Origin: Limisphaerales bacterium | GTDB taxonomy: Bacteria; Verrucomicrobiota; Verrucomicrobiia; Limisphaerales; SXQI01 | DNA length: 64,000 nucleotides | Direction of reading: 5' to 3' | Assembly: GCA_044226545.1 (NCBI GenBank) | Contig: JBGAGW010000003.1 | Location: forward strand, 431,823-495,822 | Shown: piece by piece, positions 4,762-52,472 of the stretch | Position numbering within the stretch: position 1 is the first letter of the stretch | How the letters are laid out: each line of letters starts with the position of its first letter | Position numbers and translations under genes: made by a program | Notes under the pieces: model-generated | What the model was told of the DNA's origin: nothing | Seen by the model: only the letters and a program-made list of their open reading frames with translations | Database searches by the model: none

Positions 4762-5337
4762 TTACTTGCCCGGCGCAGGAAGAAAATCCATCGCTCGGAG
4801 TTCCAAATTCGGTATACCCAGCGCCCGCAAAACCTCTTTCTCCGCCAGCCGAACATGGGAACTGTATCCATTTGAACCCGGCTCGCGATAAACGTCCACC
4901 ATGCGATTCTCAGCACGAACCAACCAATACTCAGGGATTCCGGCTTCCGCGTAGAGTTCAGCCTTTGTCTGATCCAGGACAAGACTGCTGATCGAGATTT
5001 CAACCACCAATTCCGCTCGCCGCGGATGCTCGTGAAGCCAGTCCTCAGGCGAGCCGCGAACGACCGAGATATCCGGTTCAGGCTCAGAATCAGCAAAGGT
5101 CAGAGGCGCTCCCAATCGCACGACATAATCTTTCGGCACCATCCGCATGAGCAGAGTCGCTAATTTTTGCAAAACGAATTCGTGCAAAGGTGATTTGGAC
5201 ATTTTATCAACAATAAGCCCCCGCAGCAGTTCGACCTTTTCAGCTATGATTCCAAGCTCCCCCAAACGATGATATTCGACCACCGACATGCGGTGAAGTC
5301 GCTCTCGAACCCCCGGCAGCTCAAGTATCGCACTCAT
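4762..5337 (-). CDS. Uma2-family (DUF820) putative endonuclease
   Basis: MSVVEYHRLGELGII...PEPDISVV...AELVVEISISS...KAELYAEAGIPEYWLV matches the Uma2/DUF820 pattern. I take the start at MSAILELPG (ATG at 5335-5337) rather than the ORF maximum at 5373. Confidence 0.8.
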   Translation of the reverse strand: MSAILELPGVRERLHRMSVVEYHRLGELGIIAEKVELLRGLIVDKMSKSPLHEFVLQKLATLLMRMVPKDYVVRLGAPLTFADSEPEPDISVVRGSPEDWLHEHPRRAELVVEISISSLVLDQTKAELYAEAGIPEYWLVRAENRMVDVYREPGSNGYSSHVRLAEKEVLRALGIPNLELRAMDFLPAPGK

Positions 5338-5422
5338 TAGGTTAATCCTACTGTGAGCGCTCAATCGCATCAAACCAACGATTTTGTTTTACGCTGCTGT
5401 TCCGATCGGCTTAAACGGCGGA

Positions 5423-6964
5423 ATGCGAACCCTGCTGTTTCCGGTCGTCTTCGGCTGGTTGCTTTTTGTCCAAGAGACTTCTGGCGCGACCCGTCCAAAC
5501 ATCGTCTTCATCATGACGGACGATCACGCTGCGCACGCGATCAGCGCCTACGGCAGCGCGGTGAACCAAACCCCCAATCTGGATCGAATCGCCAAAGAAG
5601 GAGTTCGCCTCAATCGATGTTTCGCGGTTAATTCCATCTGCACGCCGAGCCGTGCGAGCATTCTTACGGGGAAATACTCGCACTTGAATGGCGTGCCTGT
5701 TTTCAATCGTTTCGACGGATCGCAACCCACCGTCGCAAAATATCTCCAGGGCGCCGGGTATTACACTGGCATGATCGGAAAATGGCATCTCGGCAGCGAT
5801 CCAACGGGCTTCGACAAATGGATGGTTCTTCCCGGTCAGGGTGACTACTTCAATCCCGCGTTCCTGGTTCCGGAAGGACGCAAGACGATCAAGGGTTACG
5901 CCACAGATATCATCACCGATCTGGCGATCGACTTCCTGAGTAACCGCCCGGCAGATAAGCCGTTCTTTTTGATGTGCCATCACAAAGCGCCGCATCGTCC
6001 ATGGCAACCGGACGCAAAGCATGAGGCGCAATTTCGCGACCGACTCATTCCAGAACCCGCCACCTTGCGCGACGATTACTCCACCCGGACCGACGCGCTC
6101 CACGAAAACCGTCAGCGTGTGTTTCAGGATTTGACTCGCCGTGATCTCAAGCTGCAACCGCCCGGCGATCTCACCGGCGCCGCACGGAACAAATGGCTTG
6201 ATACTGCTCCGACGGAAGTCGAGATCACTGTCAACGGCCAAAAGAAGATCCTCGCCGGGGAAGAACTGAACAAATGGAAGTACCAGCGTTACATGCAGGA
6301 TTACCTTGCCTGCGTCCAATCGGTCGATGACAACGTGGGACGACTGCTCGACTGGCTCGATACGCACGGCTTGCGCGAAAATACTCTGGTCATCTACACC
6401 AGCGACCAGGGGTTCTTCCTCGGTGATCACGGCCTCTTCGACAAACGTTTCATGTATGAGCCTTCCATTAAAATGCCCTTCCTCGCGCGCTGGCCGGGCA
6501 TCATTCCTCCCGGCTCTGTCGACAATTCTTTGGCGCTAAACGTCGATTTCGCCGAGACATTTCTGGAAGCGGCGAACGCCTCCATCCCCGACGATATGCA
6601 AGGCCACAGTCTCCTTCCGCTCCTTCGAAGCGAACATCCCACAGAGTGGCGGACCAGCTTTTACTACCGCTACTACCACGATCCCGGCCACCACAACACC
6701 CGCGCCCATTATGGCGTTCGGACCGAAACACACAAACTCATCTACTATTGGAAGAAAGATCAATGGGAGCTGTTCGACCTCCGCACTGGTCCAGACGAAC
6801 TGCACAACATCTACAGCCTACCCGAGCAGCAAGCGGTAGTTACTCGCCTGAAAGCCGAACTTAATCGCTTAAAAAAGGAAGTGCGCGACAACGATCAATT
6901 CGCAACGGAGTTGCCGGCAGATGGCGTCGATGGCCCCTTCCCGGACAAAAAACCGATTCCTTAG
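5423..6964 (+). CDS. Sulfatase (arylsulfatase / N-acetylglucosamine-6-sulfatase-like), secreted
   Basis: A signal peptide (MRTLLFPVVFGWLLFVQETSGA) is followed by PNIVFIMTDD and the formylglycine signature CTPSRASILTG. The ATG at 5423 is preferred over the TTG at 5384. Confidence 0.95.
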   Translation: MRTLLFPVVFGWLLFVQETSGATRPNIVFIMTDDHAAHAISAYGSAVNQTPNLDRIAKEGVRLNRCFAVNSICTPSRASILTGKYSHLNGVPVFNRFDGSQPTVAKYLQGAGYYTGMIGKWHLGSDPTGFDKWMVLPGQGDYFNPAFLVPEGRKTIKGYATDIITDLAIDFLSNRPADKPFFLMCHHKAPHRPWQPDAKHEAQFRDRLIPEPATLRDDYSTRTDALHENRQRVFQDLTRRDLKLQPPGDLTGAARNKWLDTAPTEVEITVNGQKKILAGEELNKWKYQRYMQDYLACVQSVDDNVGRLLDWLDTHGLRENTLVIYTSDQGFFLGDHGLFDKRFMYEPSIKMPFLARWPGIIPPGSVDNSLALNVDFAETFLEAANASIPDDMQGHSLLPLLRSEHPTEWRTSFYYRYYHDPGHHNTRAHYGVRTETHKLIYYWKKDQWELFDLRTGPDELHNIYSLPEQQAVVTRLKAELNRLKKEVRDNDQFATELPADGVDGPFPDKKPIP

Positions 6965-37130: not shown

Positions 37131-37240
37131 GACTGCGATCCTACTCTTTCGCCGAACGCGGGTAAAGCTCGCCGCGAAGTCGAACGGGGTTTTTCCCTCG
37201 CTTGTCATGCCTTCCGTCAGGCCGTAACTTCGTCTCTCCG

Positions 37241-38017
37241 GTGGATAACGTCGCATTCGAAATTTTCGGCTTTCAGATCTATTGGTACGGCATTTTGGCT
37301 GCCGCGGGTTTTCTCTTTGGGTTCGGCACGGCGAGCCGCCGCGCTCCGCGCGCGGGACTCAAAGGGGAGGACATCTACAATCTCGCACCATGGATCATCG
37401 TTGGGACAGTGATTGGCGCTCGCCTTCTTTACGTCATCTCATATTGGGACAAGGAATTCGCCGGGCAACCGCTCACGCACATTTTCAACATGCGCTCGGG
37501 GCTGGTTTATTACGGAGGGCTGATCGGCGCGTCTCTCGGGACGATTCTCTACACCCGGAAAGCGAAAGTGCCTCTCTGGCGGCTTGCTGACGTGATGGCT
37601 CCGAGTGTTCCGCTTGGCCACGCCTTCGGCCGGGTAGGCTGTTTCATGACCGGTTGTTGCTACGGTAAGGCGTGTAGTCTTCCCTGGGCGGTTCATTTTC
37701 CGAAGGAACATTGGACGCAGGGCATTGGCGTTCACCCGGTCCAGCTCTACGAGAGCGGCTTAAACCTGCTCTTTTACGCGCTGCTGGCCTGGCTTTTCCA
37801 AAGGCGAAAATTCGATGGCCAGATATTCGCCATTTACCTGATGGGTTACGCCATTCTTCGCGCCTTCACCGAGACGTTTCGCGGCGATTACACTCAGCAT
37901 TACCTGGGCGGAATTCTAACGCCCGGCCAGGCGGTGAGCATCCTCATTTTCGCTCTCGGAGTGGCTCTGTGGATCTGGCGTGCCCGTTTGCGAACACCGA
38001 AGCTCGCTCCCGCGTAG
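37241..38017 (+). CDS. lgt: Prolipoprotein diacylglyceryl transferase, paralog 2 (canonical length)
   Basis: The call rests on FEIFGFQIYWYGILAAAGFLFG, GLVYYGGLIGA, GRVGCFMTGCCYG and HPVQLYES. The start could be the GTG at 37241 or the TTG at 37202. Confidence 0.9.
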   Translation: MDNVAFEIFGFQIYWYGILAAAGFLFGFGTASRRAPRAGLKGEDIYNLAPWIIVGTVIGARLLYVISYWDKEFAGQPLTHIFNMRSGLVYYGGLIGASLGTILYTRKAKVPLWRLADVMAPSVPLGHAFGRVGCFMTGCCYGKACSLPWAVHFPKEHWTQGIGVHPVQLYESGLNLLFYALLAWLFQRRKFDGQIFAIYLMGYAILRAFTETFRGDYTQHYLGGILTPGQAVSILIFALGVALWIWRARLRTPKLAPA

Positions 38018-38020
38018 CCA

Positions 38021-38968
38021 ATGTCAGAGCGAATGGAAAGCGTGACGGTCGAAGCCTCCCGCCCGGGCGAGCGCCTGGACGTTTATCTCCGCACTCATTT
38101 TCCGAACACCTCCCGCGGCACCCTGCAGAAGCTGATTGATACGGGTGATATCAAGGTCAACGACCGTCAGGTCAAACCGACTTACTCACCAAAATCTGGT
38201 GATGTTGTCACCGTTCAATGGCCTGAGCCGAAGAAACTTGATTTGCTCCCTGAGCAAATTCCGCTGCAAATTCTTTACGAGGATTCCGATCTGCTCGTCA
38301 TCAACAAGCAGCCCGATTTGGTGGTCCATCCCGGCGCCGGCAATTACGAACACACCCTTGTTAATGCTTTACTTCATCACTGTGAAGGCCAACTCAGCGG
38401 CATTGCCGGTTACGCGCGACCCGGGATCGTTCATCGACTCGATAAAGATACCAGCGGTTGCATGGTCGTTGCCAAGAACGATACTGCCCACCTCGGCCTC
38501 TCCGACCAATTCCGTAATCGAACGATGGAAAAAATTTATCACGCGATCCTTTGCGGCGATTTGCCTGCCCAGCGTGGAGAAATCAGCGCTGCCATCACTC
38601 GACACCCGGCGCGTCGTCGCACCATGACCGTCGCCGACGCCGGGAAAGGGAGGGAAGCCCGCACCAGCTACCGCATTCTTGAGCGCCTTCGCAACGCGAC
38701 TCTCGTTCAAGTTGTCCTGCACACTGGACGCACTCACCAAATCCGCGTTCACTTTCAGCACCTCGGCTTCCCACTGGCCGGAGATCGCGTTTACGGCGGC
38801 AAACAAAACGTGCGCCTCGAAAAGCAAACCAACTTCAAAGCCGATCGGCAGATGCTTCACGCCTATTCTTTAACGTTTGTCCACCCACGCACCGCAAAGA
38901 CCATCAACTGCACTGCTCCCTGGCCTGAAGATTTCAAGGAGGCCGTCGTCAGATTGCGAAAAGCCTGA
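38021..38968 (+). CDS. rluD: RluA-family 23S rRNA pseudouridine synthase (RluD-like, with S4 domain)
   Basis: It has an N-terminal S4-like segment (GERLDVYL...LIDTGDIKVNDRQVK), the catalytic HRLDKDTSG and TGRTHQIRVH. Confidence 0.92.
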   Translation: MSERMESVTVEASRPGERLDVYLRTHFPNTSRGTLQKLIDTGDIKVNDRQVKPTYSPKSGDVVTVQWPEPKKLDLLPEQIPLQILYEDSDLLVINKQPDLVVHPGAGNYEHTLVNALLHHCEGQLSGIAGYARPGIVHRLDKDTSGCMVVAKNDTAHLGLSDQFRNRTMEKIYHAILCGDLPAQRGEISAAITRHPARRRTMTVADAGKGREARTSYRILERLRNATLVQVVLHTGRTHQIRVHFQHLGFPLAGDRVYGGKQNVRLEKQTNFKADRQMLHAYSLTFVHPRTAKTINCTAPWPEDFKEAVVRLRKA

Positions 38969-45869: not shown

Positions 45870-48800
45870 CTATTTTCGCACCAACCGATAGAACCGCGCA
45901 TGCCCCTGGGTCGGGCGTTGAACAGAATTGACCGAACCAGGATCAATCGTTGTCACAGCCGTCCACAACGGGTGCGCTAAATCGGACGTCTCCTCGAGAG
46001 TTGCGGCGGAAAAACCACGCCAGGAAATGATCACGTTCCCGGCTTGCATCGTGACAACGAGTTCCGGCTGGTTCTGGAACACGAGACACTCGCTGGTGGT
46101 GATGCTCGCGAATCTCAAATCGCTGTTCGCATTATCACGATAGCAGATCCGCGCCTGGCCATTTTCATCAATCGCGATAGAGGTGTAGGAGCCGATTAAA
46201 GTACTGGCGTCGACAGTCTGAATCGACCAGAACGCGCCATTCCAAACGGCATACTTCAGCGTGTTATTACCGAGATCGCGATAGCTGATGTGCGCACGGT
46301 CCGTCGTATCCAAAGCAAGCGAACAATCGAAACCAACGGCTCCGGCGCTGTCGACCACCTCGAGCCGCCAACCGGTCGTCGAACGCTGTGCGAACTTCAG
46401 ATCCGTGTTGGAACTATCGCGGTAAGCGATGCGCGGCTGGCCATCCTCGCCAATGCGCAGCGAACTGGAAAATCCAACTGAACCCTCGGAATCAACCGTT
46501 TCAACGAGCCATGTGCCTCCGTTCCATTCGGCGAATTTCAGATCGTTCAGCGTAGAGTCGCGATAACTGATCATCGGACGATCCTGCGCAGTCAACGCGA
46601 GAGAAGCATCATTCCCGGTTTTGTTCGTTGCGTCGACTGTTTGCACCTGCCATCCCGCTACGCCTTTTTGCGCGTAAAGCAGATCGCCGTTCGCCTCGTC
46701 CATAAAGGCGACCCGCGGAGTGCCATCGCGCGCCAGCTTCAACGAGCTGAAACTGCCGGCCGGTCCTACGGTTGGAATCGTTTCAATCTCCCAACTCGTT
46801 CCGTTCCACGCCGCGAATTTGAGGCGTTGTTGTGTTTCATCACGGTAGCAGATTCGCGGTTGACCTGATTCATTCAGTGCGATGGACGTATAGGTCCCAA
46901 CATTGCCCGTAACATCCACGGTTTCGATAGTCCAACCGTTCAGGGTCTGGCGCGCGTATTTCAGATCACCATTCGTCGTATCGTAATAACTGATGTGGGC
47001 CGCTCCCGCGGAGTCAAGCGCAAGCGAGCTGTAATTGCCCACCGATCCAGCACTGTCCACAGTCTCAAGTTTCCACAACGGCGCGGGCGGTCCAATTACC
47101 TGGCGAAAGCTGTTCGTGCGGCGAACTCCGTCGAGATCGCTTACCAGCTGAAATACAATTGTCGATCCGCACGGGACCTCTGGAGAAAGCGCGAAGGAGA
47201 CGGGAACATTCATTTCGCCATTCCCAGGAATTGCGACAGGAGTCTCAACGGCTGACGAAATGACTCCGAAGCTTGCGCTCACAACGTGCACCGTTCCGGC
47301 CAGCGGAGTTGAGTTCCCGTTATGCAAAGTGAGGCTTCCCGTGATGGTTTCCCCCGGTTCAACCGCACCGTTTCCGTTCCCACCGGCGGCATCGGAAAAA
47401 TTCAGAGTCCCGATCGAAATCGGATTAGCTGCTCCCGCTGAAGTTCCGTAAATCTGTAAATGGAGAGATTCAAGAACGCCGATGTCCCCCATTTTCAAAT
47501 CAGCTATACGCACGCGCCAGATGCCTTGAGAACTTTCGCCCCAATTACGAACGGTCATGAATTTCCACTCAACGTAATCAGAACCGGGATCATTGTGCTG
47601 TTCAGATAATCGACTTTCCATGCCGGAGGGCGAAATAAGCGTAATTGCAAGGTCGCCGCGGAACGGGTGAGTGATGCTTGCGCTGAGAGTGACATGCTCG
47701 ACCCGCAAATTCGTCTGCGAAATATCGAAATCCTGAGTAATTCCCTGTATATCGTTGTCCGGAATGGCCAACTCGAGATTCGTCTTCGCGACCGAGACAT
47801 TTGTCCACACTCCGAGGTTCTGCCAGGTTAGTGCGAGCTCGACAGCGCCATCCACGTTGAGCAATCCCGCGCCGTATTTGTGATTGAAATGCATGGCAGC
47901 GGCATTCACCGTCCAATCCAAATCGTGCTCATCCACGACCAACGCCGAGCGCATCAGAATCTCCTGCATGTCACGCCAGCCGAGGTTCGGGTTCGCACTT
48001 AATAAAAGAGCGACTGCGCCAGCAGCCTGCGGAACCGAGGCGGAAGTGCCGACAAAACTTTTTGTATAATCCAGGTCAGAATAATCGTCCGGACTTTCAA
48101 CCTTGTTGGCGCCGTCGGCGCCTTGAAGGTCAGTCGTGGTTATGCCGGGTCGGCCGAAACTACCACTGGGCGTGACCACCACAACGCAAGCGCCCGGTTC
48201 GCTGAAATCAGTCTGCAATCCCTGGTCGCTCACTGAACCCACGGCGATGGTGTAAATTGAATTCGCGTAGGCGTCGTAGTTCGCGTTGTCATGAACATCA
48301 AGCCCATTTCCAGCGGCCCAGACGTAGATTTCACCGTGGCCGTTTCGCCCCGAACGCACACCTTCCTCCAGAGCCGCCAAGGCCAGCGGTCCAGGTCCTT
48401 CGAGCGTCTTACCGTCATCCTCTGGGCCCCAGCTATTGCTCTTCACGTGGATTTGCTCATTCTTAAACAGAATTGCCTCCGACTCGGTCACGTCCGTGCT
48501 CGCGAGGCTGATCAGGCGGAGTCCCGCGATAGTCGCTTCGAAGGCGACGCCAGCCACCCCCACTCCATTGTCACCAATCGCCGCAGCCGCGCCGGCACAT
48601 TCCGTTCCGTGGAAATCACCTTTAAGCGGATGCGCCGTCGGATCGGCATCGCGCTCATTCCAATCGTATCCGAGCGCGGGATCGATATGCGCGGCCAAAT
48701 CCGGATGACTCGTGTCGATCCCGTCATCGACAACTCCGATAGCCACTCCTTTGCCCCGGTAATTGGTCCAGGTGTTGGTCAGATGCAGATCGATGCCAGC

Positions 48801-49277
48801 GCGCGCACCGCTTAAACCATGATTCACCAGGTTCCACTGATTAGTGAAGAGCGGATCATTAGGTAAAGACTTTCGGACTCGCTGCCTGGCCAAAATCGGT
48901 TCCGCGCTGATGACGGATGGATTCGCGCGCAGCTTTCCCAGAACTTCCAATGCGAGTTCCGCAGACGGAGCCTGAAAAATGTAATGGTCCTCGCGCAGCG
49001 GCGTTGCCCGAAAATGCGCAGCATCGACGGCCGCCGCCACGGAGGCGGGGTCGCTCCCCTTTTTGAGATGAACAAGAATATCTGTCGTAACCTGACGCGA
49101 GGTGGCATGCACTTTTCCCACCTCTCGCAGTTCGACTATCTCGCCACGACTCGGGCCAACGTGAAAGTGCCTTGGTTGCCCGCTCTCGAGTGCCCGAAGC
49201 GTTTGACCGCCAATCATGGGCACAGATGTCCCGAGAAGCAGCGCGATCAGGCCGAGACGTGGAAGCAAATAATTCAA
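45870..49277 (-). CDS. Secreted S8 (kexin/proprotein-convertase-like) serine peptidase with a P-domain, a 7-repeat propeller and an '...RFYRL' tail
   Basis: The catalytic triad contexts are VVDDGID, HGTECAG and GTSASVPQAAG. The P-domain is HPFRGDLAITLISPSGMESRL...WGESSQGIWRVRIAD. These are followed by seven 47-aa repeats and a C-terminal ...ISWRG...PLWTAV...ARFYRLVRK. Confidence 0.92.
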   Translation of the reverse strand: MNYLLPRLGLIALLLGTSVPMIGGQTLRALESGQPRHFHVGPSRGEIVELREVGKVHATSRQVTTDILVHLKKGSDPASVAAAVDAAHFRATPLREDHYIFQAPSAELALEVLGKLRANPSVISAEPILARQRVRKSLPNDPLFTNQWNLVNHGLSGARAGIDLHLTNTWTNYRGKGVAIGVVDDGIDTSHPDLAAHIDPALGYDWNERDADPTAHPLKGDFHGTECAGAAAAIGDNGVGVAGVAFEATIAGLRLISLASTDVTESEAILFKNEQIHVKSNSWGPEDDGKTLEGPGPLALAALEEGVRSGRNGHGEIYVWAAGNGLDVHDNANYDAYANSIYTIAVGSVSDQGLQTDFSEPGACVVVVTPSGSFGRPGITTTDLQGADGANKVESPDDYSDLDYTKSFVGTSASVPQAAGAVALLLSANPNLGWRDMQEILMRSALVVDEHDLDWTVNAAAMHFNHKYGAGLLNVDGAVELALTWQNLGVWTNVSVAKTNLELAIPDNDIQGITQDFDISQTNLRVEHVTLSASITHPFRGDLAITLISPSGMESRLSEQHNDPGSDYVEWKFMTVRNWGESSQGIWRVRIADLKMGDIGVLESLHLQIYGTSAGAANPISIGTLNFSDAAGGNGNGAVEPGETITGSLTLHNGNSTPLAGTVHVVSASFGVISSAVETPVAIPGNGEMNVPVSFALSPEVPCGSTIVFQLVSDLDGVRRTNSFRQVIGPPAPLWKLETVDSAGSVGNYSSLALDSAGAAHISYYDTTNGDLKYARQTLNGWTIETVDVTGNVGTYTSIALNESGQPRICYRDETQQRLKFAAWNGTSWEIETIPTVGPAGSFSSLKLARDGTPRVAFMDEANGDLLYAQKGVAGWQVQTVDATNKTGNDASLALTAQDRPMISYRDSTLNDLKFAEWNGGTWLVETVDSEGSVGFSSSLRIGEDGQPRIAYRDSSNTDLKFAQRSTTGWRLEVVDSAGAVGFDCSLALDTTDRAHISYRDLGNNTLKYAVWNGAFWSIQTVDASTLIGSYTSIAIDENGQARICYRDNANSDLRFASITTSECLVFQNQPELVVTMQAGNVIISWRGFSAATLEETSDLAHPLWTAVTTIDPGSVNSVQRPTQGHARFYRLVRK
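46083..47075 (-). repeat. Seven tandem ~141-bp (47-aa) coding repeats inside the S8 peptidase gene
   Basis: The unit consensus is W.(I/V)ETVD..G.VG.y.S(L/I)AL...G.P.I.YRD....DLKFA. The repeats read: VGNYSSLALDSAGAAHISYYD..., VGTYTSIALNESGQPRICYRD..., AGSFSSLKLARDGTPRVAFMD..., TGNDASLALTAQDRPMISYRD..., VGFSSSLRIGEDGQPRIAYRD..., VGFDCSLALDTTDRAHISYRD..., IGSYTSIAIDENGQARICYRD... Confidence 0.85.
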
Positions 49278-49304: not shown

Positions 49305-51086
49305 TCATGCCCACGCGGGCTTCGGCGCAGTGAAAGTCATACGCTGATGGGTGAGCGGATGGTTCAACTCAATCCGCCACGCGTGCAGACAAAGGGGCGC
49401 TTCTTCGGGACTCAGCGTCTGCTTCACGCCGCTCCCTGCAGTCGAATATATCGGGTCGCCACAGACGGGCCAACCAAGGGTGGCCAGATGCAATCGAATT
49501 TGGTTGGTCCGCCCTGTAATCGGGTACGCCTCCAGGAGCGTCGTCCCATCGTCGCGGCGTTCAACAACTCGAAATTCTGTGCGCGACGGCAATCCTTCCG
49601 AAGGATCAATTTCACGACTGCCGACCTCGCCAGGCTCGGCCGAAACGGGTGCGTCGCAGAAAAAGGAATCATTCGGCGGTGAGCCCGCGACGCGAACCAG
49701 ATAGGCCTTCTTGATCTCACCCCTCGAAAACTGTGGTTGAAGGCGAGAAGCAAAATGACGCGTGCGTGTGACCAGCACCAATCCTGTGGTGTTCGCATCC
49801 AAACGATGCGCCGGATGCGGTTTTTGCGGCCGGTACACTTCGTTGAGAATGTATTGAAGCGTGTTTCGATTGAAGCGACCGCCCGCGTGCATCGGCAGAG
49901 GCGCCGGCTTATGCAGGACGATCAACGCTTCGTCCTCGTGCAGAATCTCGATTTTCGCGTTTACCTCTGGCTCAACAATCGAGGGCAGTTTCTGGAAATA
50001 CCTTTCGCCGGCAGAGACACGATGATCGAGCGCGACCGTTTGTCGCTCTGGTCCGAGCAAGAGCCCTGCATCGCAAACCCGCTTCCATTCCGTTTCCGGA
50101 ATATGTTTGAGCGTGGCGGAGAGAAAGTCGATCAAGGTGAAACCGTCGCAGCGCGTGGGCACAGTTATCGGGCGACAATTATCGTACGCGATGCTGCCAG
50201 GCAGCGGCGTGGTGACTCGTCGAATCGCCTCGTGCCGCTCTGCAATGTTCAAGGCCATTTGTTCCATTGAAGTGCGGAAACAGTACGGACACGATTTTCC
50301 CGCAACGTAACGAGGATCACCCTGTTCCGCCTCGGTGAGCGGCGTAAGGCATTTGAAACATTGAGTGCTCTCAGTTTCGTGGAGTGTGGGATCCACTCCC
50401 ACGCGCTGATCGAAGACGAAACACTCTCCTTCGTAATGAGCACCGCCGCATACCTCGAAATACTTCAGTATTCCGCCGTCCAACTGGAAGATGTTTTTGA
50501 ACCCTTCCCTCTCCATGAACGGCCCGGCCTTTTCGCAGCGAATTCCGCCCGTGCAGAACATAACGATGGGCTGCTCCTTCATCTCCGGCGGAAGTTTTCG
50601 CACTGCTTCGGGAAAGTTTCGGAAGTTCTGGATGCCAATCGGCAGCGCGTTCTTGAACGTCCCCAGCTTCACCTCGTAGTCGTTTCGCGTATCAAGCAGC
50701 GTTACGGGACGCCCTTGGTCGAGCCATTGCTTCAACGTCTGTGCGGGCAGTTTCGGGGAAGTTCGCCTGGCTGGATCGATTCCGGGAACGCCGAAAGCGA
50801 TGATCTCTTTTTTGATTCGCACCAGCATCCGATTGAACGGTTGATGATCCGTTTCGCTCACCTTCGGCTCGAGTTCCTCGAGGCCCGGGATCGCACGCAA
50901 TTCAGCCAGTAATTGATCGATCTCCTCTGGTCCACCCGCTACAAAGAGGTTTATCCCCTCGGTGCTGATGAGAATCGTTCCTTTCAGTCGAAGGCGCCGG
51001 GTGAGCCCAAGCAAATGTGCGCGCAGTTCTTTGAGCTCTATAAGCGGCGCGAACTTGTAAGCGGCAATGTTGCGGATGGTTGTCAT
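49305..51086 (-). CDS. Fusion protein: TrhO/YceA-like rhodanese domain (UPF0176) + RluA-family pseudouridine synthase
   Basis: The N-terminal half has IAAYKF...ILISTEGINLFVAG...LLDTRNDYEVKLGTF...VMFCTGGIRCEKAG...LDGGILKYF...ECFVFDQRVGV plus a CxxC..CxxC cluster. The C-terminal half has LHKPAPLPMH...HRLDANTTGLVLV...TGRTNQIRLHLA. The true ATG is at 51084-51086 (MTTIRNIAAYKF). Confidence 0.85.
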   Translation of the reverse strand: MTTIRNIAAYKFAPLIELKELRAHLLGLTRRLRLKGTILISTEGINLFVAGGPEEIDQLLAELRAIPGLEELEPKVSETDHQPFNRMLVRIKKEIIAFGVPGIDPARRTSPKLPAQTLKQWLDQGRPVTLLDTRNDYEVKLGTFKNALPIGIQNFRNFPEAVRKLPPEMKEQPIVMFCTGGIRCEKAGPFMEREGFKNIFQLDGGILKYFEVCGGAHYEGECFVFDQRVGVDPTLHETESTQCFKCLTPLTEAEQGDPRYVAGKSCPYCFRTSMEQMALNIAERHEAIRRVTTPLPGSIAYDNCRPITVPTRCDGFTLIDFLSATLKHIPETEWKRVCDAGLLLGPERQTVALDHRVSAGERYFQKLPSIVEPEVNAKIEILHEDEALIVLHKPAPLPMHAGGRFNRNTLQYILNEVYRPQKPHPAHRLDANTTGLVLVTRTRHFASRLQPQFSRGEIKKAYLVRVAGSPPNDSFFCDAPVSAEPGEVGSREIDPSEGLPSRTEFRVVERRDDGTTLLEAYPITGRTNQIRLHLATLGWPVCGDPIYSTAGSGVKQTLSPEEAPLCLHAWRIELNHPLTHQRMTFTAPKPAWA

Positions 51087-51161
51087 CAGCGAAAAATTAC
51101 AAGATAACCAGAAATCACTCGCTTTCGAGAGGGAATCTGCGCAAAACGCAAGTAACCTGAT

Positions 51162-51836
51162 TTGCCTCGGAGCGGTCTTGATTGTGCGGTGAACACGGAT
51201 AGAGACATCGTCCTGATTGGAAACGGCCCGCTTTCCCAACAACTTCCTCCCGAACTTGTTGCGCGGGCGTTTGTCATCCGTTTTAACGTGCCCCGCCGCC
51301 ACCCACCGGAATTCGGGGAAAAATGTGACGCGCTTTGCGTGACCAATCACGGCAATCCGGGCCGCCATATCGCGAAAGAGCGCGCGTTGCTGAACAGCAA
51401 GTATATCACACCGCACACTGAGATTTGGATTCCGCGTCCGCGCTTTCGCAGCTCATTGGGTTGCCTCTGGAACCATCCGATCCGGAAGACCCGGTGGACA
51501 CTTGACCATGCGCATCACATCATTCGCCGGAACAAACTTCACCTCAACACAGTGGTTCTTTTTTCAGAACAACTCTGGCGGGAGGCTTTCGGCATGCTCG
51601 GTCTGGACGCAACGCAAATCGAAGTTTCGCCAAGCTCTGGCTTTCTCGCTCTGGTTTACGTTCTGCAACGTTTTCCGCCAGAACTGTACAAGATACACCT
51701 GAGCGGATTTACTTTCGAAGGCAGTGCCGCGCATCCATGGAAACTGGAAAAAGCGGCGGCCGAAAAGCTGGCCAACTCAGGAATCCTCAAAGTTTGGGAC
51801 ACCCAACCCAATCAATCGAGCCGAGCGACAGCTTGA
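51162..51836 (+). CDS. Putative glycosyltransferase with sialyltransferase-like (GT29/GT42-like) motifs
   Basis: The L-like motif is IVLIGNGPLS...FVIRFN...EFGEKCDALCV. The S-like motif is PSSGFLALVYVLQRF...LSGF. The VS-like motif is HPWKLE (H-x4-E). The assignment rests on motif resemblance only. Confidence 0.5.
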   Translation: MPRSGLDCAVNTDRDIVLIGNGPLSQQLPPELVARAFVIRFNVPRRHPPEFGEKCDALCVTNHGNPGRHIAKERALLNSKYITPHTEIWIPRPRFRSSLGCLWNHPIRKTRWTLDHAHHIIRRNKLHLNTVVLFSEQLWREAFGMLGLDATQIEVSPSSGFLALVYVLQRFPPELYKIHLSGFTFEGSAAHPWKLEKAAAEKLANSGILKVWDTQPNQSSRATA

Positions 51837-52472
51837 TCAAGGGTTGATACAGCGCACCGCCCGCCAGAGGACAGAGATCGGCTCGCACGTTTCAATTTCA
51901 ACCCCTGCTTCACGCATCAATTTGCGGAGGTTGAGATCGGTTTTGAAGCCCAATCGATAGCAGATGGGAGAATAAAGCTTCTCCACGAAACCGAAAAACG
52001 GATTCTCGCTCTGGAAATGATTCAGGAACACAAGGTACCCGCCCGGCTTGCACACCCTTTTCATTTCCTTTACCACCGCGACCGGGTCCGGCACCGTTGA
52101 AATGAAATAAGCGGCAAAAACCCGATCAAAACTGGCATCTGGAAATTCCAGCTTCGTTGCGTCCATCTTCTGCAGCTTGATGTTCCGCAGGCGCAACTCT
52201 TTGGCGCGCTCATGCGCCTTTTCGAGCATTCCTTGCGAGAGATCTATGCCGGTGAAATCAATGTTCCGAGGCAACAACGGCAAGGAAAGTCCCGTGCCGA
52301 TCCCTACCTCCAGAAGCTTGGCGCCGGGGTAAAGATCCAATAATTCAGGCCCGAGTTCCCGTCCGCTTTGAAAGACTTTGCCGAAGAGGAAATCGTAAAC
52401 CCCTGAGTAGGTGTTGTACACCCTCTCCATGTATTCCACGCTCATACCATGTTTGCAGGCTGCAAAAGACAT
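51837..52472 (-). CDS. Class I SAM-dependent methyltransferase (PmtA-like)
   Basis: Motif I is LLEVGIGTGLSL, followed by GIDLSQGMLEKA and KPGGYLVFLNH. Confidence 0.85.
   Translation of the reverse strand: MSFAACKHGMSVEYMERVYNTYSGVYDFLFGKVFQSGRELGPELLDLYPGAKLLEVGIGTGLSLPLLPRNIDFTGIDLSQGMLEKAHERAKELRLRNIKLQKMDATKLEFPDASFDRVFAAYFISTVPDPVAVVKEMKRVCKPGGYLVFLNHFQSENPFFGFVEKLYSPICYRLGFKTDLNLRKLMREAGVEIETCEPISVLWRAVRCINP

Follow-up and report, generated by a model that had tools for sequence, protein, structure and literature searches.

A conserved protein joining a TrhO-type rhodanese module to an RluA-family pseudouridine synthase

Background

To our knowledge, TrhO is the only rhodanese-type RNA hydroxylase known, and most RluA-family paralogues beyond the model organisms have no assigned target sites. 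Other fusions of two RNA-modifying enzymes are MnmC, which works on one nucleotide, and RlmKL, which works on two nearby rRNA nucleotides, while in yeast Rib2/Pus8 an RluA-family synthase of pseudouridine 32 shares one chain with an unrelated domain; we know of none among these three in which the partners are a rhodanese-type hydroxylase and a pseudouridine synthase. TrhO structures are available for Legionella Lpg2838 (4F67) and for Bacillus subtilis TrhO with tRNA-Ala (9J5O). In Escherichia coli TrhO, residues C200, T201, G203 and R205 and a surface containing K112 and R114 are essential (PMC6599085), and fusions of TrhO with TrmR have been described in Phytophthora and Phaeodactylum (Sakai et al. 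2019, PMC6599085). For the synthases, the target sites of COG0564 paralogues are not readable from sequence similarity (PMC7408541).

Here we describe a gene in which a TrhO-type module was followed by a complete pseudouridine synthase. No published description of this fusion was found in the literature searched, and it is an uncharacterised combination of known kinds of enzyme.

Results and discussion

Gene, reading frame and distribution

The window (the whole stretch of 64,000 nt analysed) contained on its minus strand an uninterrupted ORF of 593 codons at nt 49305-51086, translated with neither stop nor frameshift. The mechanical ORF extends upstream to a GTG at nt 51416, and the NCBI gene call (P0001, 687 aa) starts at nt 51368. 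Because the homologues were 593 to 600 aa long with a nearly invariant M1, the ATG at nt 51086 is the likely start, and the 5′ end of P0001 is probably over-extended by 94 codons, the sole gene-calling problem at the locus. A promoter and terminator scan gave nothing exceeding chance. The features assigned were as follows, with invariance counted in the 72 full-length sequences described below.

49305..51086, minus strand: CDS of the fusion protein, 593 aa plus stop at 49305-49307 (continuous translation, full-length homologues)
50796..51086, minus strand: UPF0176_N acylphosphatase-like domain, aa 1-97 (Pfam PF17773, aa 5-95, 82 bits; alignment to E. coli TrhO)
50391..50795, minus strand: rhodanese catalytic domain, aa 98-232 (Pfam PF00581, aa 115-209, 43.5 bits)
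50535-50555, minus strand: active-site loop CTGGIRC, aa 178-184 (loop residues invariant, 72/72)
50271..50390, minus strand: zinc-ribbon-like CxxC-x19-CxxC, aa 233-272, end of the TrhO-like module (four Cys, 72/72)
50151..50270, minus strand: junction, predicted helix (aa 273-291) and PLPGSxPYxNxRP motif, aa 273-312 (motif shared by free-standing relatives)
49962..50150, minus strand: S4-like domain, aa 313-375 (alignment to the RluC and RluD S4 domains from E. coli)
49308..49961, minus strand: RluA-family catalytic domain, aa 376-593 (Pfam PF00849, PseudoU_synth_2, aa 388-535)
49797-49808, minus strand: HRLD, aa 427-430, with catalytic Asp430 (motif residues invariant, 72/72)
49488-49514, minus strand: GRTNQIRLH, aa 525-533 (motif residues invariant, 72/72)

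Full-length homologues shared 58% to 84% identity with the protein, more than 120 of them 68% to 84%. From the genome collection, 194 relatives were recovered and 80 loci kept, spanning Verrucomicrobiota families, six Planctomycetota-labelled MAGs and three cultured isolates; the cultured hosts were Luteolibacter pohnpeiensis, Steroidobacter agaridevorans and Peristeroidobacter agariperforans, and Steroidobacteraceae genomes were among the carriers recovered. Metagenome patterns derived from the alignment of free-standing synthases were too generic, and the close relatives obtained were just L085 and L086, both of them fusions. Database annotations of these proteins were inconsistent ("sulfurtransferase", "UPF0176 protein", "rluA", "TrhO", "MoeZ"), each covering only half of the protein.

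Conservation was counted in 72 full-length sequences, namely the window protein and 71 other species-level sequences. Every synthase-motif residue and every tested catalytic residue of both halves was invariant (72/72), so that loss of catalytic residues, named in the first-pass annotation as a way for the fusion to fail, had occurred in neither half. Its central claim, a single polypeptide joining a TrhO-type module to a complete RluA-family catalytic domain in one continuous frame, agreed with the Pfam and NCBIfam matches and with hundreds of independent homologues sharing the junction, and the motifs it quoted (CTGGIRCEK, the CxxC pairs, HRLDANTTG and TGRTNQIRLH) were all present in the translation. 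An artefact of sequencing, assembly or gene calling that joined two adjacent genes has a negligible chance of being the explanation and is refuted, since independent homologues and loci share the uninterrupted architecture, in separate assemblies that include isolates and contigs 0.5 to 6 Mb long, together with conserved junction residues, and no error was found at the junction.

The TrhO-type N-terminal module

In residues 1 to 272, the UPF0176_N domain preceded the rhodanese domain, the order of the TrhO family (Pfam), and the protein scored 237.8 bits against the NCBIfam TrhO equivalog NF001133 (cut-off 170). The closest group was the short PRK05320-type subfamily (321 bits, slightly short of the 331 required). 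The essential residues of E. coli TrhO aligned with C178, T179, G181, R183, R90 and K92 of the fusion. The first four fall in CTGGIRCEK (aa 178-186), while R90 and K92, in the basic strand RMLVRIKKE of the UPF0176_N domain, aligned with K112 and R114 as a conservative swap; K92 was found in 72/72 and R90 in 70/72 sequences of the full-length alignment. The rhodanese domain was the most conserved domain of the fusion (mean identity 0.83, 51 of 135 columns invariant, n = 72). Judged by these residues, the TrhO half looks active.

The zinc-ribbon cysteines were C243, C246, C266 and C269, in CFKC (aa 243-246) and CPYC (aa 266-269), and a weak Rhodanese_C (Pfam) match covered aa 219-252. In the alignment, free-standing TrhO-like relatives stop directly past the second CxxC. 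A TrhO-like match reaching residue 330 or so had been proposed; the identity of the module stood, and its real end is about aa 272.

The pseudouridine synthase C-terminal module

The synthase module started at about aa 273-280 and consisted of a helix with the PLPGS motif, an S4-like domain and the catalytic domain. With the TrhO-like part reaching only to about aa 272, the junction lies near nt 50256-50277, which corrects an earlier placement at nt 50100-50200. PLPGSxPYxNxRP was the N-terminal signature of the synthase subfamily to which the fusion belongs: free-standing relatives of about 320 aa, carrying Planctomycetota labels, begin at the region corresponding to aa 273-312. Among fusions, P294, P296 and G297 were almost invariant, and aa 273-291 were helical in the AF2 model (mean pLDDT 76; pTM 0.52, too low to place the two active sites relative to each other).

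The S4-like domain was the least conserved region (identity 0.40, n = 72). Scanning between the domains detected no Pfam S4 match even at E = 10, and no zinc-ribbon family either. The match to the NCBIfam RluA-family model TIGR00005 begins at aa 314 and only just passed its cut-off (193.1 vs 192.7 bits), and the best Foldseek match was full-length RluD (2IST, 301 columns aligned). In the catalytic domain, PF00849 scored 100.7 bits vs 26.8, and H427, R428, D430, Y462, G525, R526, Q529, R531 and H533 were invariant in 72/72 fusions, lying in HRLDANTTG (aa 427-435), the KxY motif (Tyr462) and TGRTNQIRLH (aa 524-533). A complete RluA-type catalytic domain, as first proposed, was thus borne out by Pfam and by the invariant motifs, and the synthase half, too, looks active on this evidence.

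Among solved structures, the catalytic domain scored best with E. coli RluA (2I82, 95.9 bits, TM 0.85), with RluC and RluD at about 77 bits. All orthologue-level models were missed: RluA (NF007543) with 93.6 bits vs 286, RluC with 86.6 vs 378, RluD with 77 vs 351 and TruC with 66.9 vs 328. Two close relatives, P0193 and P0336, scored higher with RluC than with RluA. By these scores the C-terminal half falls outside the RluA orthologues; it formed its own clade and, given a separate RluD-like synthase in the window at nt 38021-38968, is an extra paralogue.

Variants, free-standing relatives and gene context

In two homologues, P0336 (Povalibacter, WP_324315059.1) and P0137, the rhodanese domain (aa 98-232) had been lost with precise boundaries, whereas the UPF0176_N domain and the zinc ribbon were still joined to the synthase. 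Because the rhodanese domain alone was lost, the accessory elements of TrhO appear to have been kept for the benefit of the synthase, and the comparison suggests that the UPF0176_N domain and the zinc ribbon recruit RNA for it. In the distant fusions P0125, P0138, P0141 and P0146 the loop was CxDGxRS, without the essential Thr. These rhodanese-less and degenerate-loop variants amount to separation-of-function mutants made by evolution.

A free-standing verrucomicrobial TrhO-like gene (loci L167-L170) was 63% identical to the N-terminal half of the fusion and had no synthase neighbour; it was divergent to a gene for TrmO, another modifier of the tRNA anticodon loop, which supports a tRNA context. 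Free-standing synthase genes in the two relatives examined (L165 and L166) had no adjacent trhO-like gene. When ORFs around 81 fusion loci were clustered, no neighbour family occurred in more than 7 loci and thus no operon clue was obtained; no conserved neighbourhood tied the fusion to the xo5U or another tRNA pathway in the same 81 loci. A neighbouring methyltransferase at nt 51837-52472 was considered as CmoA or TrmR and rejected, being PmtA-like or UbiE-like. No tRNA genes were present in the window, and a census of 82 related loci gave a single informative tRNA, tRNA-Ser(UGA) in L065, which was the sole TrhO-type tRNA in a fusion-bearing locus and had C at position 32.

Possible function of the fusion

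The domain architecture is that of two joined modules, the catalytic residues of both are intact, and the fusion is strongly conserved. From these we infer both enzymatic activities, tRNA as the substrate, and action of the two halves on one RNA molecule, for which a common tRNA is plausible. The reading we prefer, at a probability of roughly 0.5, is that of a bifunctional RNA-modifying enzyme whose halves would both modify one tRNA captured by the TrhO elements. The TrhO-type module (aa 1-272) would use O2 to turn U34, the wobble base of NYN-family-box tRNAs, into ho5U, and the module at aa 273-593 would, through Asp430, make pseudouridine from a uridine by isomerisation. The basic sheet of the N-terminal domain, an acylphosphatase-like RNA-binding domain, and the zinc ribbon may hold the tRNA for both active sites, which probably act on it one after the other; such shared capture of the substrate would most likely be what the fusion is for. 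For the pseudouridine site, position 32 is just one of the candidates. Counting against shared capture are the layout of an S4-like and a catalytic domain, as in the rRNA enzymes RluC and RluD, the C32 of tRNA-Ser(UGA), the lack of a linking neighbourhood in the loci clustered, and the lack of a trhO-like gene beside the two free-standing synthases examined.

The same layout and the full-length RluD match would fit two independent activities, with the TrhO half working on tRNA U34, the synthase on 23S rRNA or unrelated tRNAs, and the fusion serving co-expression only. Free-standing synthases of the subfamily without adjacent trhO and a free-standing TrhO-like gene in Verrucomicrobiota are in keeping with this. 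However, retention of the TrhO N-terminal domain and zinc ribbon in the rhodanese-deleted variants is unexpected for unrelated halves, the fusion persists in the recovered genomes of Verrucomicrobiota and Steroidobacteraceae and in those labelled Planctomycetota, and the window already has an RluD-like gene besides the fusion; we regard this explanation as unlikely.

Somewhat less credible is the proposal of the first-pass annotation that one anticodon loop receives both ho5U34, from the N-terminal domain, and pseudouridine 32, from the C-terminal one. The TrhO half retains its essential residues, and the solved structure scoring best with the catalytic domain belongs to an enzyme of Psi32 and Psi746, but the RluA equivalog was missed, P0193 and P0336 were nearer to RluC, E. 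coli RluA has no S4-like domain, and the only informative tRNA carries C32. The tRNA substrates of E. coli RluA (Phe, Cys and Leu) are also not known to overlap with those of TrhO. Given the missed orthologue models, the S4-like domain, the separate clade and C32, an "RluA-type" domain does not by itself support pseudouridine 32 as the product, and similarity does not predict the specificity of such paralogues (PMC7408541).

Mechanistic coupling of the two modules on one anticodon stem-loop would go further than shared capture and seems improbable to us. The synthase might remodel or flip out the loop, or mark it with pseudouridine, and so present U34 to the rhodanese site, or the order might be the reverse; if true, this would impose an obligatory order of pseudouridylation and wobble hydroxylation that is absent from the free-standing enzymes. 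In a less likely variant, the TrhO-like module would have been retargeted to a pyrimidine beside a pseudouridine site in 23S rRNA; in E. coli, ho5C2501 and Psi2504 lie 3 nt apart.

That one half of the window protein is catalytically dead and serves as an RNA-binding module only is very improbable: precedents exist in the four distant fusions with the Thr missing and in P0336 and P0137 with the rhodanese domain missing, but the catalytic residues tested in the two halves were all kept in 72/72 sequences and the rhodanese domain was the most conserved.

As regards the preferred reading of one tRNA captured for both halves, the conserved fusion offers a natural hint that an orphan synthase subfamily works on xo5U-class tRNAs. 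Since cultured hosts exist (L. pohnpeiensis and S. agaridevorans), the question is directly testable.

Comparison with known systems

Like the TrhO (YceA/UPF0176) proteins of E. coli, B. subtilis and Pseudomonas aeruginosa, which hydroxylate tRNA U34 in an O2-dependent manner, the N-terminal module combines UPF0176_N and rhodanese domains with a Cys-rich C-terminal element, together with a CTGGIR(C) loop bearing every residue known to be essential, and it passed the TrhO cut-off. It matched Legionella Lpg2838 (4F67) with 175 bits over aa 8-236 and 40% identity in the Foldseek alignment, and shared 31% identity with E. coli TrhO. Known TrhO proteins are stand-alone and 265 to 350 aa long, whereas here a complete pseudouridine synthase directly follows the module.

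The catalytic fold of the synthase and its HRLD, KxY and GRxxQxRxH motifs are those of E. coli RluA (tRNA Psi32 and 23S Psi746; 2I82), but RluA is a single domain of 219 aa, to which the fusion adds a helix with the PLPGS motif and an S4-like domain. The order of an S4-like and an RluA-family catalytic domain resembles that of the E. coli 23S rRNA enzymes RluD and RluC, although the scores with their models were far below the cut-offs. The TrhO-TrmR fusions likewise join TrhO to a second tRNA-modifying enzyme in one chain. There, TrmR acts on the product of TrhO at the same nucleotide (ho5U to mo5U), whereas the partner here is a pseudouridine synthase, which is unable to act on the base modified by TrhO, so that a second site must be involved.

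Fusion gene and its start codon

Translation from ATG 51086 gave a protein of 593 aa without interruption, which bore out the first-pass annotation of a single continuous-frame polypeptide combining a TrhO-type N-half with an RluA-family pseudouridine synthase; all motifs quoted there were found. The following ORFs were called in this region:

49305-51416, minus strand: fusion ORF, mechanical extent
51162-51836, plus strand: ORF of 224 aa, overlapping a 94-codon extension of the fusion gene

The NCBI gene call of the identical protein (P0001) was 687 aa, the 94 extra codons being located at 51087-51368 (minus strand), upstream of the conserved Met1. Homologues of the fusion were 593-600 aa in length with a nearly invariant Met1 in the alignment. 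The 224-aa ORF had no Pfam or NCBIfam match; within its overlap with the extension, the codon-position GC pattern was more coding-like in the plus-strand ORF, which favours this ORF as the real gene there. Thus, based on homologue length, Met1 and GC pattern, ATG 51086 is likely the start codon of the fusion gene.

Domain architecture and junction

Pfam domains of the protein (gene on the minus strand) were as follows:

aa 5-95, minus strand: UPF0176_N
aa 115-209, minus strand: Rhodanese
aa 219-252, minus strand: Rhodanese_C (weak match)
aa 388-535, minus strand: PseudoU_synth_2

Residues 7-232 passed the NCBIfam TrhO equivalog model (237.8 vs cut-off 170), and aa 314-590 barely passed the RluA-family subfamily cut-off (193.1 vs 192.7), whereas the C-half missed the orthologue models for RluA (93.6 vs 286), RluC (86.6 vs 378), RluD (77 vs 351) and TruC (66.9 vs 328). 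Free-standing TrhO-like proteins of ~280 aa aligned to aa 3-273, ending directly past the second CxxC, and free-standing RluA-family proteins of ~320 aa, the named members of which were labelled Planctomycetota (Pirellulaceae, Rubripirellula), aligned to aa 280-593. These end points place the junction at about aa 270-277; hence the fusion itself stood, but not the boundaries first proposed for it (TrhO part to residue ~330, junction at nt ~50100-50200). Met277 (50256-50258), at the junction, matched the initiator Met of the free-standing synthases in the alignment and occurred in 47 of 72 fusions; it may be either a remnant of the ancestral start codon or a start site within the gene.

The order of parts was UPF0176_N, rhodanese, four-Cys zinc ribbon, an N-terminal helix with the motif PLPGSxPYxNxRP, an S4-like domain and the catalytic domain. 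The helix and motif were common to the fusion and the ~320-aa synthases, whereas E. coli RluA, RluC, RluD and TruC lack them. Residues 313-375 could be aligned to the S4 domains that RluC and RluD carry; the Pfam scan did not detect S4 there. The AF2 model was moderate (pLDDT 76, pTM 0.52), with unreliable mutual placement of the halves; in Foldseek its top match as a whole was full-length RluD (2IST, 301 columns), and the catalytic domain alone superposed best on RluA (2I82, TM 0.85).

Conservation of both active sites

In E. coli TrhO, C200, T201, G203 and R205 are essential and the K112/R114 surface is required too, whereas G202 and C206 are dispensable (Sakai et al., PMC6599085). The essential and surface residues aligned with C178, T179, G181, R183 and R90/K92 of the fusion. 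Across 72 full-length fusion sequences from different species, the loop residues, K92 and the four zinc-ribbon Cys were invariant in the TrhO half, as were H427, R428, D430, Y462, G525, R526, Q529, R531 and H533 in the synthase half. Mean identity was highest in the rhodanese domain (0.83; 51 of 135 columns invariant), followed by the catalytic synthase domain (0.64) and the S4-like domain (0.40). This invariance and domain conservation indicate purifying selection on both halves as enzymes; the loss of catalytic residues in one half, envisaged earlier as an alternative, was not seen, the catalytic residues being kept in all 72 sequences.

Distribution of the fusion

The protein database search yielded more than 120 full-length homologues with 68% to 84% identity, all with the same three Pfam domains, and a genome scan with one genome per species yielded 194 relatives, of which 80 loci were kept. 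These numbers rule out a sequencing or assembly error at the junction. Nearest named relatives belonged to Pedosphaera/Limisphaerales, which makes this group the most likely origin of the window. The majority of kept loci were labelled Verrucomicrobiota, with carriers in Limisphaerales/Pedosphaera, Akkermansiaceae/Luteolibacter, Prosthecobacter, Chthoniobacteraceae and Puniceicoccaceae, and six were Planctomycetota-labelled MAGs. Three cultured isolates carried the fusion: Luteolibacter pohnpeiensis and the Gammaproteobacteria Steroidobacter agaridevorans and Peristeroidobacter agariperforans. Since clustering at 50% left only ~15-20 representatives of full-length fusions, the sequences form one compact family and not a common architecture.

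Eight fusion-carrying MAGs (L008, L015, L024, L034, L049, L055, L057 and L077) had implausible organism labels in their record titles, including Bifidobacterium sp., Chitinophaga pinensis, Akkermansia muciniphila, Candidatus Limnocylindria and Methylacidimicrobium fagopyrum; with 59% to 69% identity of their fusion proteins to verrucomicrobial ones, these records are probably mislabelled or mis-binned. One homologue, P0121 (916 aa), shared 60% identity over aa 4-592 and carried a C-terminal extension of ~320 aa.

Genomic context and free-standing relatives

Genes considered here were:

45870-49277, minus strand: S8 subtilase/P-domain protein, downstream neighbour on the same strand as the fusion gene
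37202-38017, plus strand: lgt (prolipoprotein diacylglyceryl transferase), directly upstream of the next gene
38021-38968, plus strand: RluD-like free-standing RluA-family synthase, 40% identity to E. coli RluD
5001-5861 in relatives' loci L167-L170: gene of P0150, a free-standing TrhO-like protein, divergent to a TrmO gene

No conserved gene neighbours were observed among 81 fusion loci compared. The subtilase ORF started 27 nt downstream of the fusion gene and encoded 1135 aa with Peptidase_S8, a proprotein-convertase P domain and a long C-terminal region containing repeated "...DLKYA/DLKFA..." units; this adjacency was not conserved in other loci. The other flank was occupied by the unannotated plus-strand ORF, with a PmtA-like methyltransferase and an AraC-type regulator farther away, and none of these four had a link to tRNA modification. 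The RluD-like synthase scored 258 bits with NCBIfam RluD (cut-off 351) and 319 bits with TIGR00005, and its presence makes the fusion's synthase an additional paralogue.

P0150 (verrucomicrobial, 286 aa, cluster of 511) shared 63% identity with the fusion N-half; its gene was transcribed divergently from one for a TrmO (PF01980) tRNA methyltransferase and had no synthase neighbour in L167-L170. In a neighbour-joining tree without support values it branched inside the fusion N-halves, and this nested place may reflect secondary fission. No trhO gene adjoined either of two free-standing synthase genes, one of which came from a Pirellulaceae MAG.

Variants with an altered or lost rhodanese domain

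Five distant fusions (P0124, P0125, P0138, P0141 and P0146; 40% to 47% identity) had the rhodanese loop CxDGxRS instead of CTGGIRC, the essential Thr being absent in four of them, with HRLD and GRTxQIR intact. In neighbour-joining trees without support values, long branches led to the N-halves of P0124, P0125, P0141 and P0146; by C-half, P0124, P0125 and P0138 lay near canonical fusions. Two further clusters, P0336 (Povalibacter sp., Steroidobacteraceae, WP_324315059.1, 470 aa) and P0137 (469 aa), had lost exactly aa 98-232 (query numbering), i.e. the rhodanese domain, while retaining UPF0176_N, zinc ribbon, S4-like domain and the complete synthase; in the C-terminal part they shared ~60% identity with Limisphaerales-type fusions. 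Because variants with a degenerate loop or no rhodanese domain keep the synthase, the latter is the constant partner, and the non-catalytic TrhO elements outlast hydroxylation. The rhodanese-less variants are the best available argument that these elements (UPF0176_N, zinc ribbon) would capture RNA for the synthase, in which case both predicted activities would act on the same RNA.

Target uridine of the synthase half

The first-pass annotation had the C-half making Psi32 and the N-half ho5U34 on one anticodon loop. RluA was nominally nearest to the query and RluC to its relatives P0193 and P0336, the clade as a whole lying at about the same distance from RluA, RluC and RluD of E. coli. In B. 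subtilis, specificity of COG0564 paralogues is not deducible from similarity, YhcT performing RluD's job yet being nearer RluA in sequence (PMC7408541). Moreover, the sole TrhO-class tRNA in any fusion locus, tRNA-Ser(UGA) of L065, had the loop CUUGAAA with C32, so that this tRNA, at least, cannot receive Psi32. For these reasons the pairing of Psi32 with ho5U34 is a hypothesis of modest probability; the reading as a TrhO/RluA-family enzyme fusion with both active sites intact holds at the sequence level, without the step to Psi32.

Comparison with known TrhO systems

Known TrhO enzymes include those of E. coli and B. subtilis, for which the function was demonstrated (PMC6599085), and that of P. 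aeruginosa, which shares only 29% identity with its E. coli counterpart and for which the evidence is genetic (PMC12288880). The PDB contains a cryo-EM structure of the B. subtilis protein in complex with tRNA-Ala (9J5O). Neither the literature searched (TrhO/UPF0176/rhodanese with synthase, structure or fusion) nor a search for a TrhO structure paper yielded a description of a TrhO-pseudouridine synthase fusion, and database names for the proteins were inconsistent (UPF0176 protein, sulfurtransferase, rluA, TrhO). The fusion, which is real, conserved and apparently a bifunctional enzyme, is itself uncharacterised and new; it is built from two known enzyme kinds and represents no new principle. 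It gives a concrete, testable clue to which substrate this orphan subfamily of pseudouridine synthases uses, and to whether pseudouridylation and wobble hydroxylation might be coupled. The only described TrhO fusion found was TrhO-TrmR of oomycetes and a diatom, in which the partner TrmR acts on TrhO's own product.
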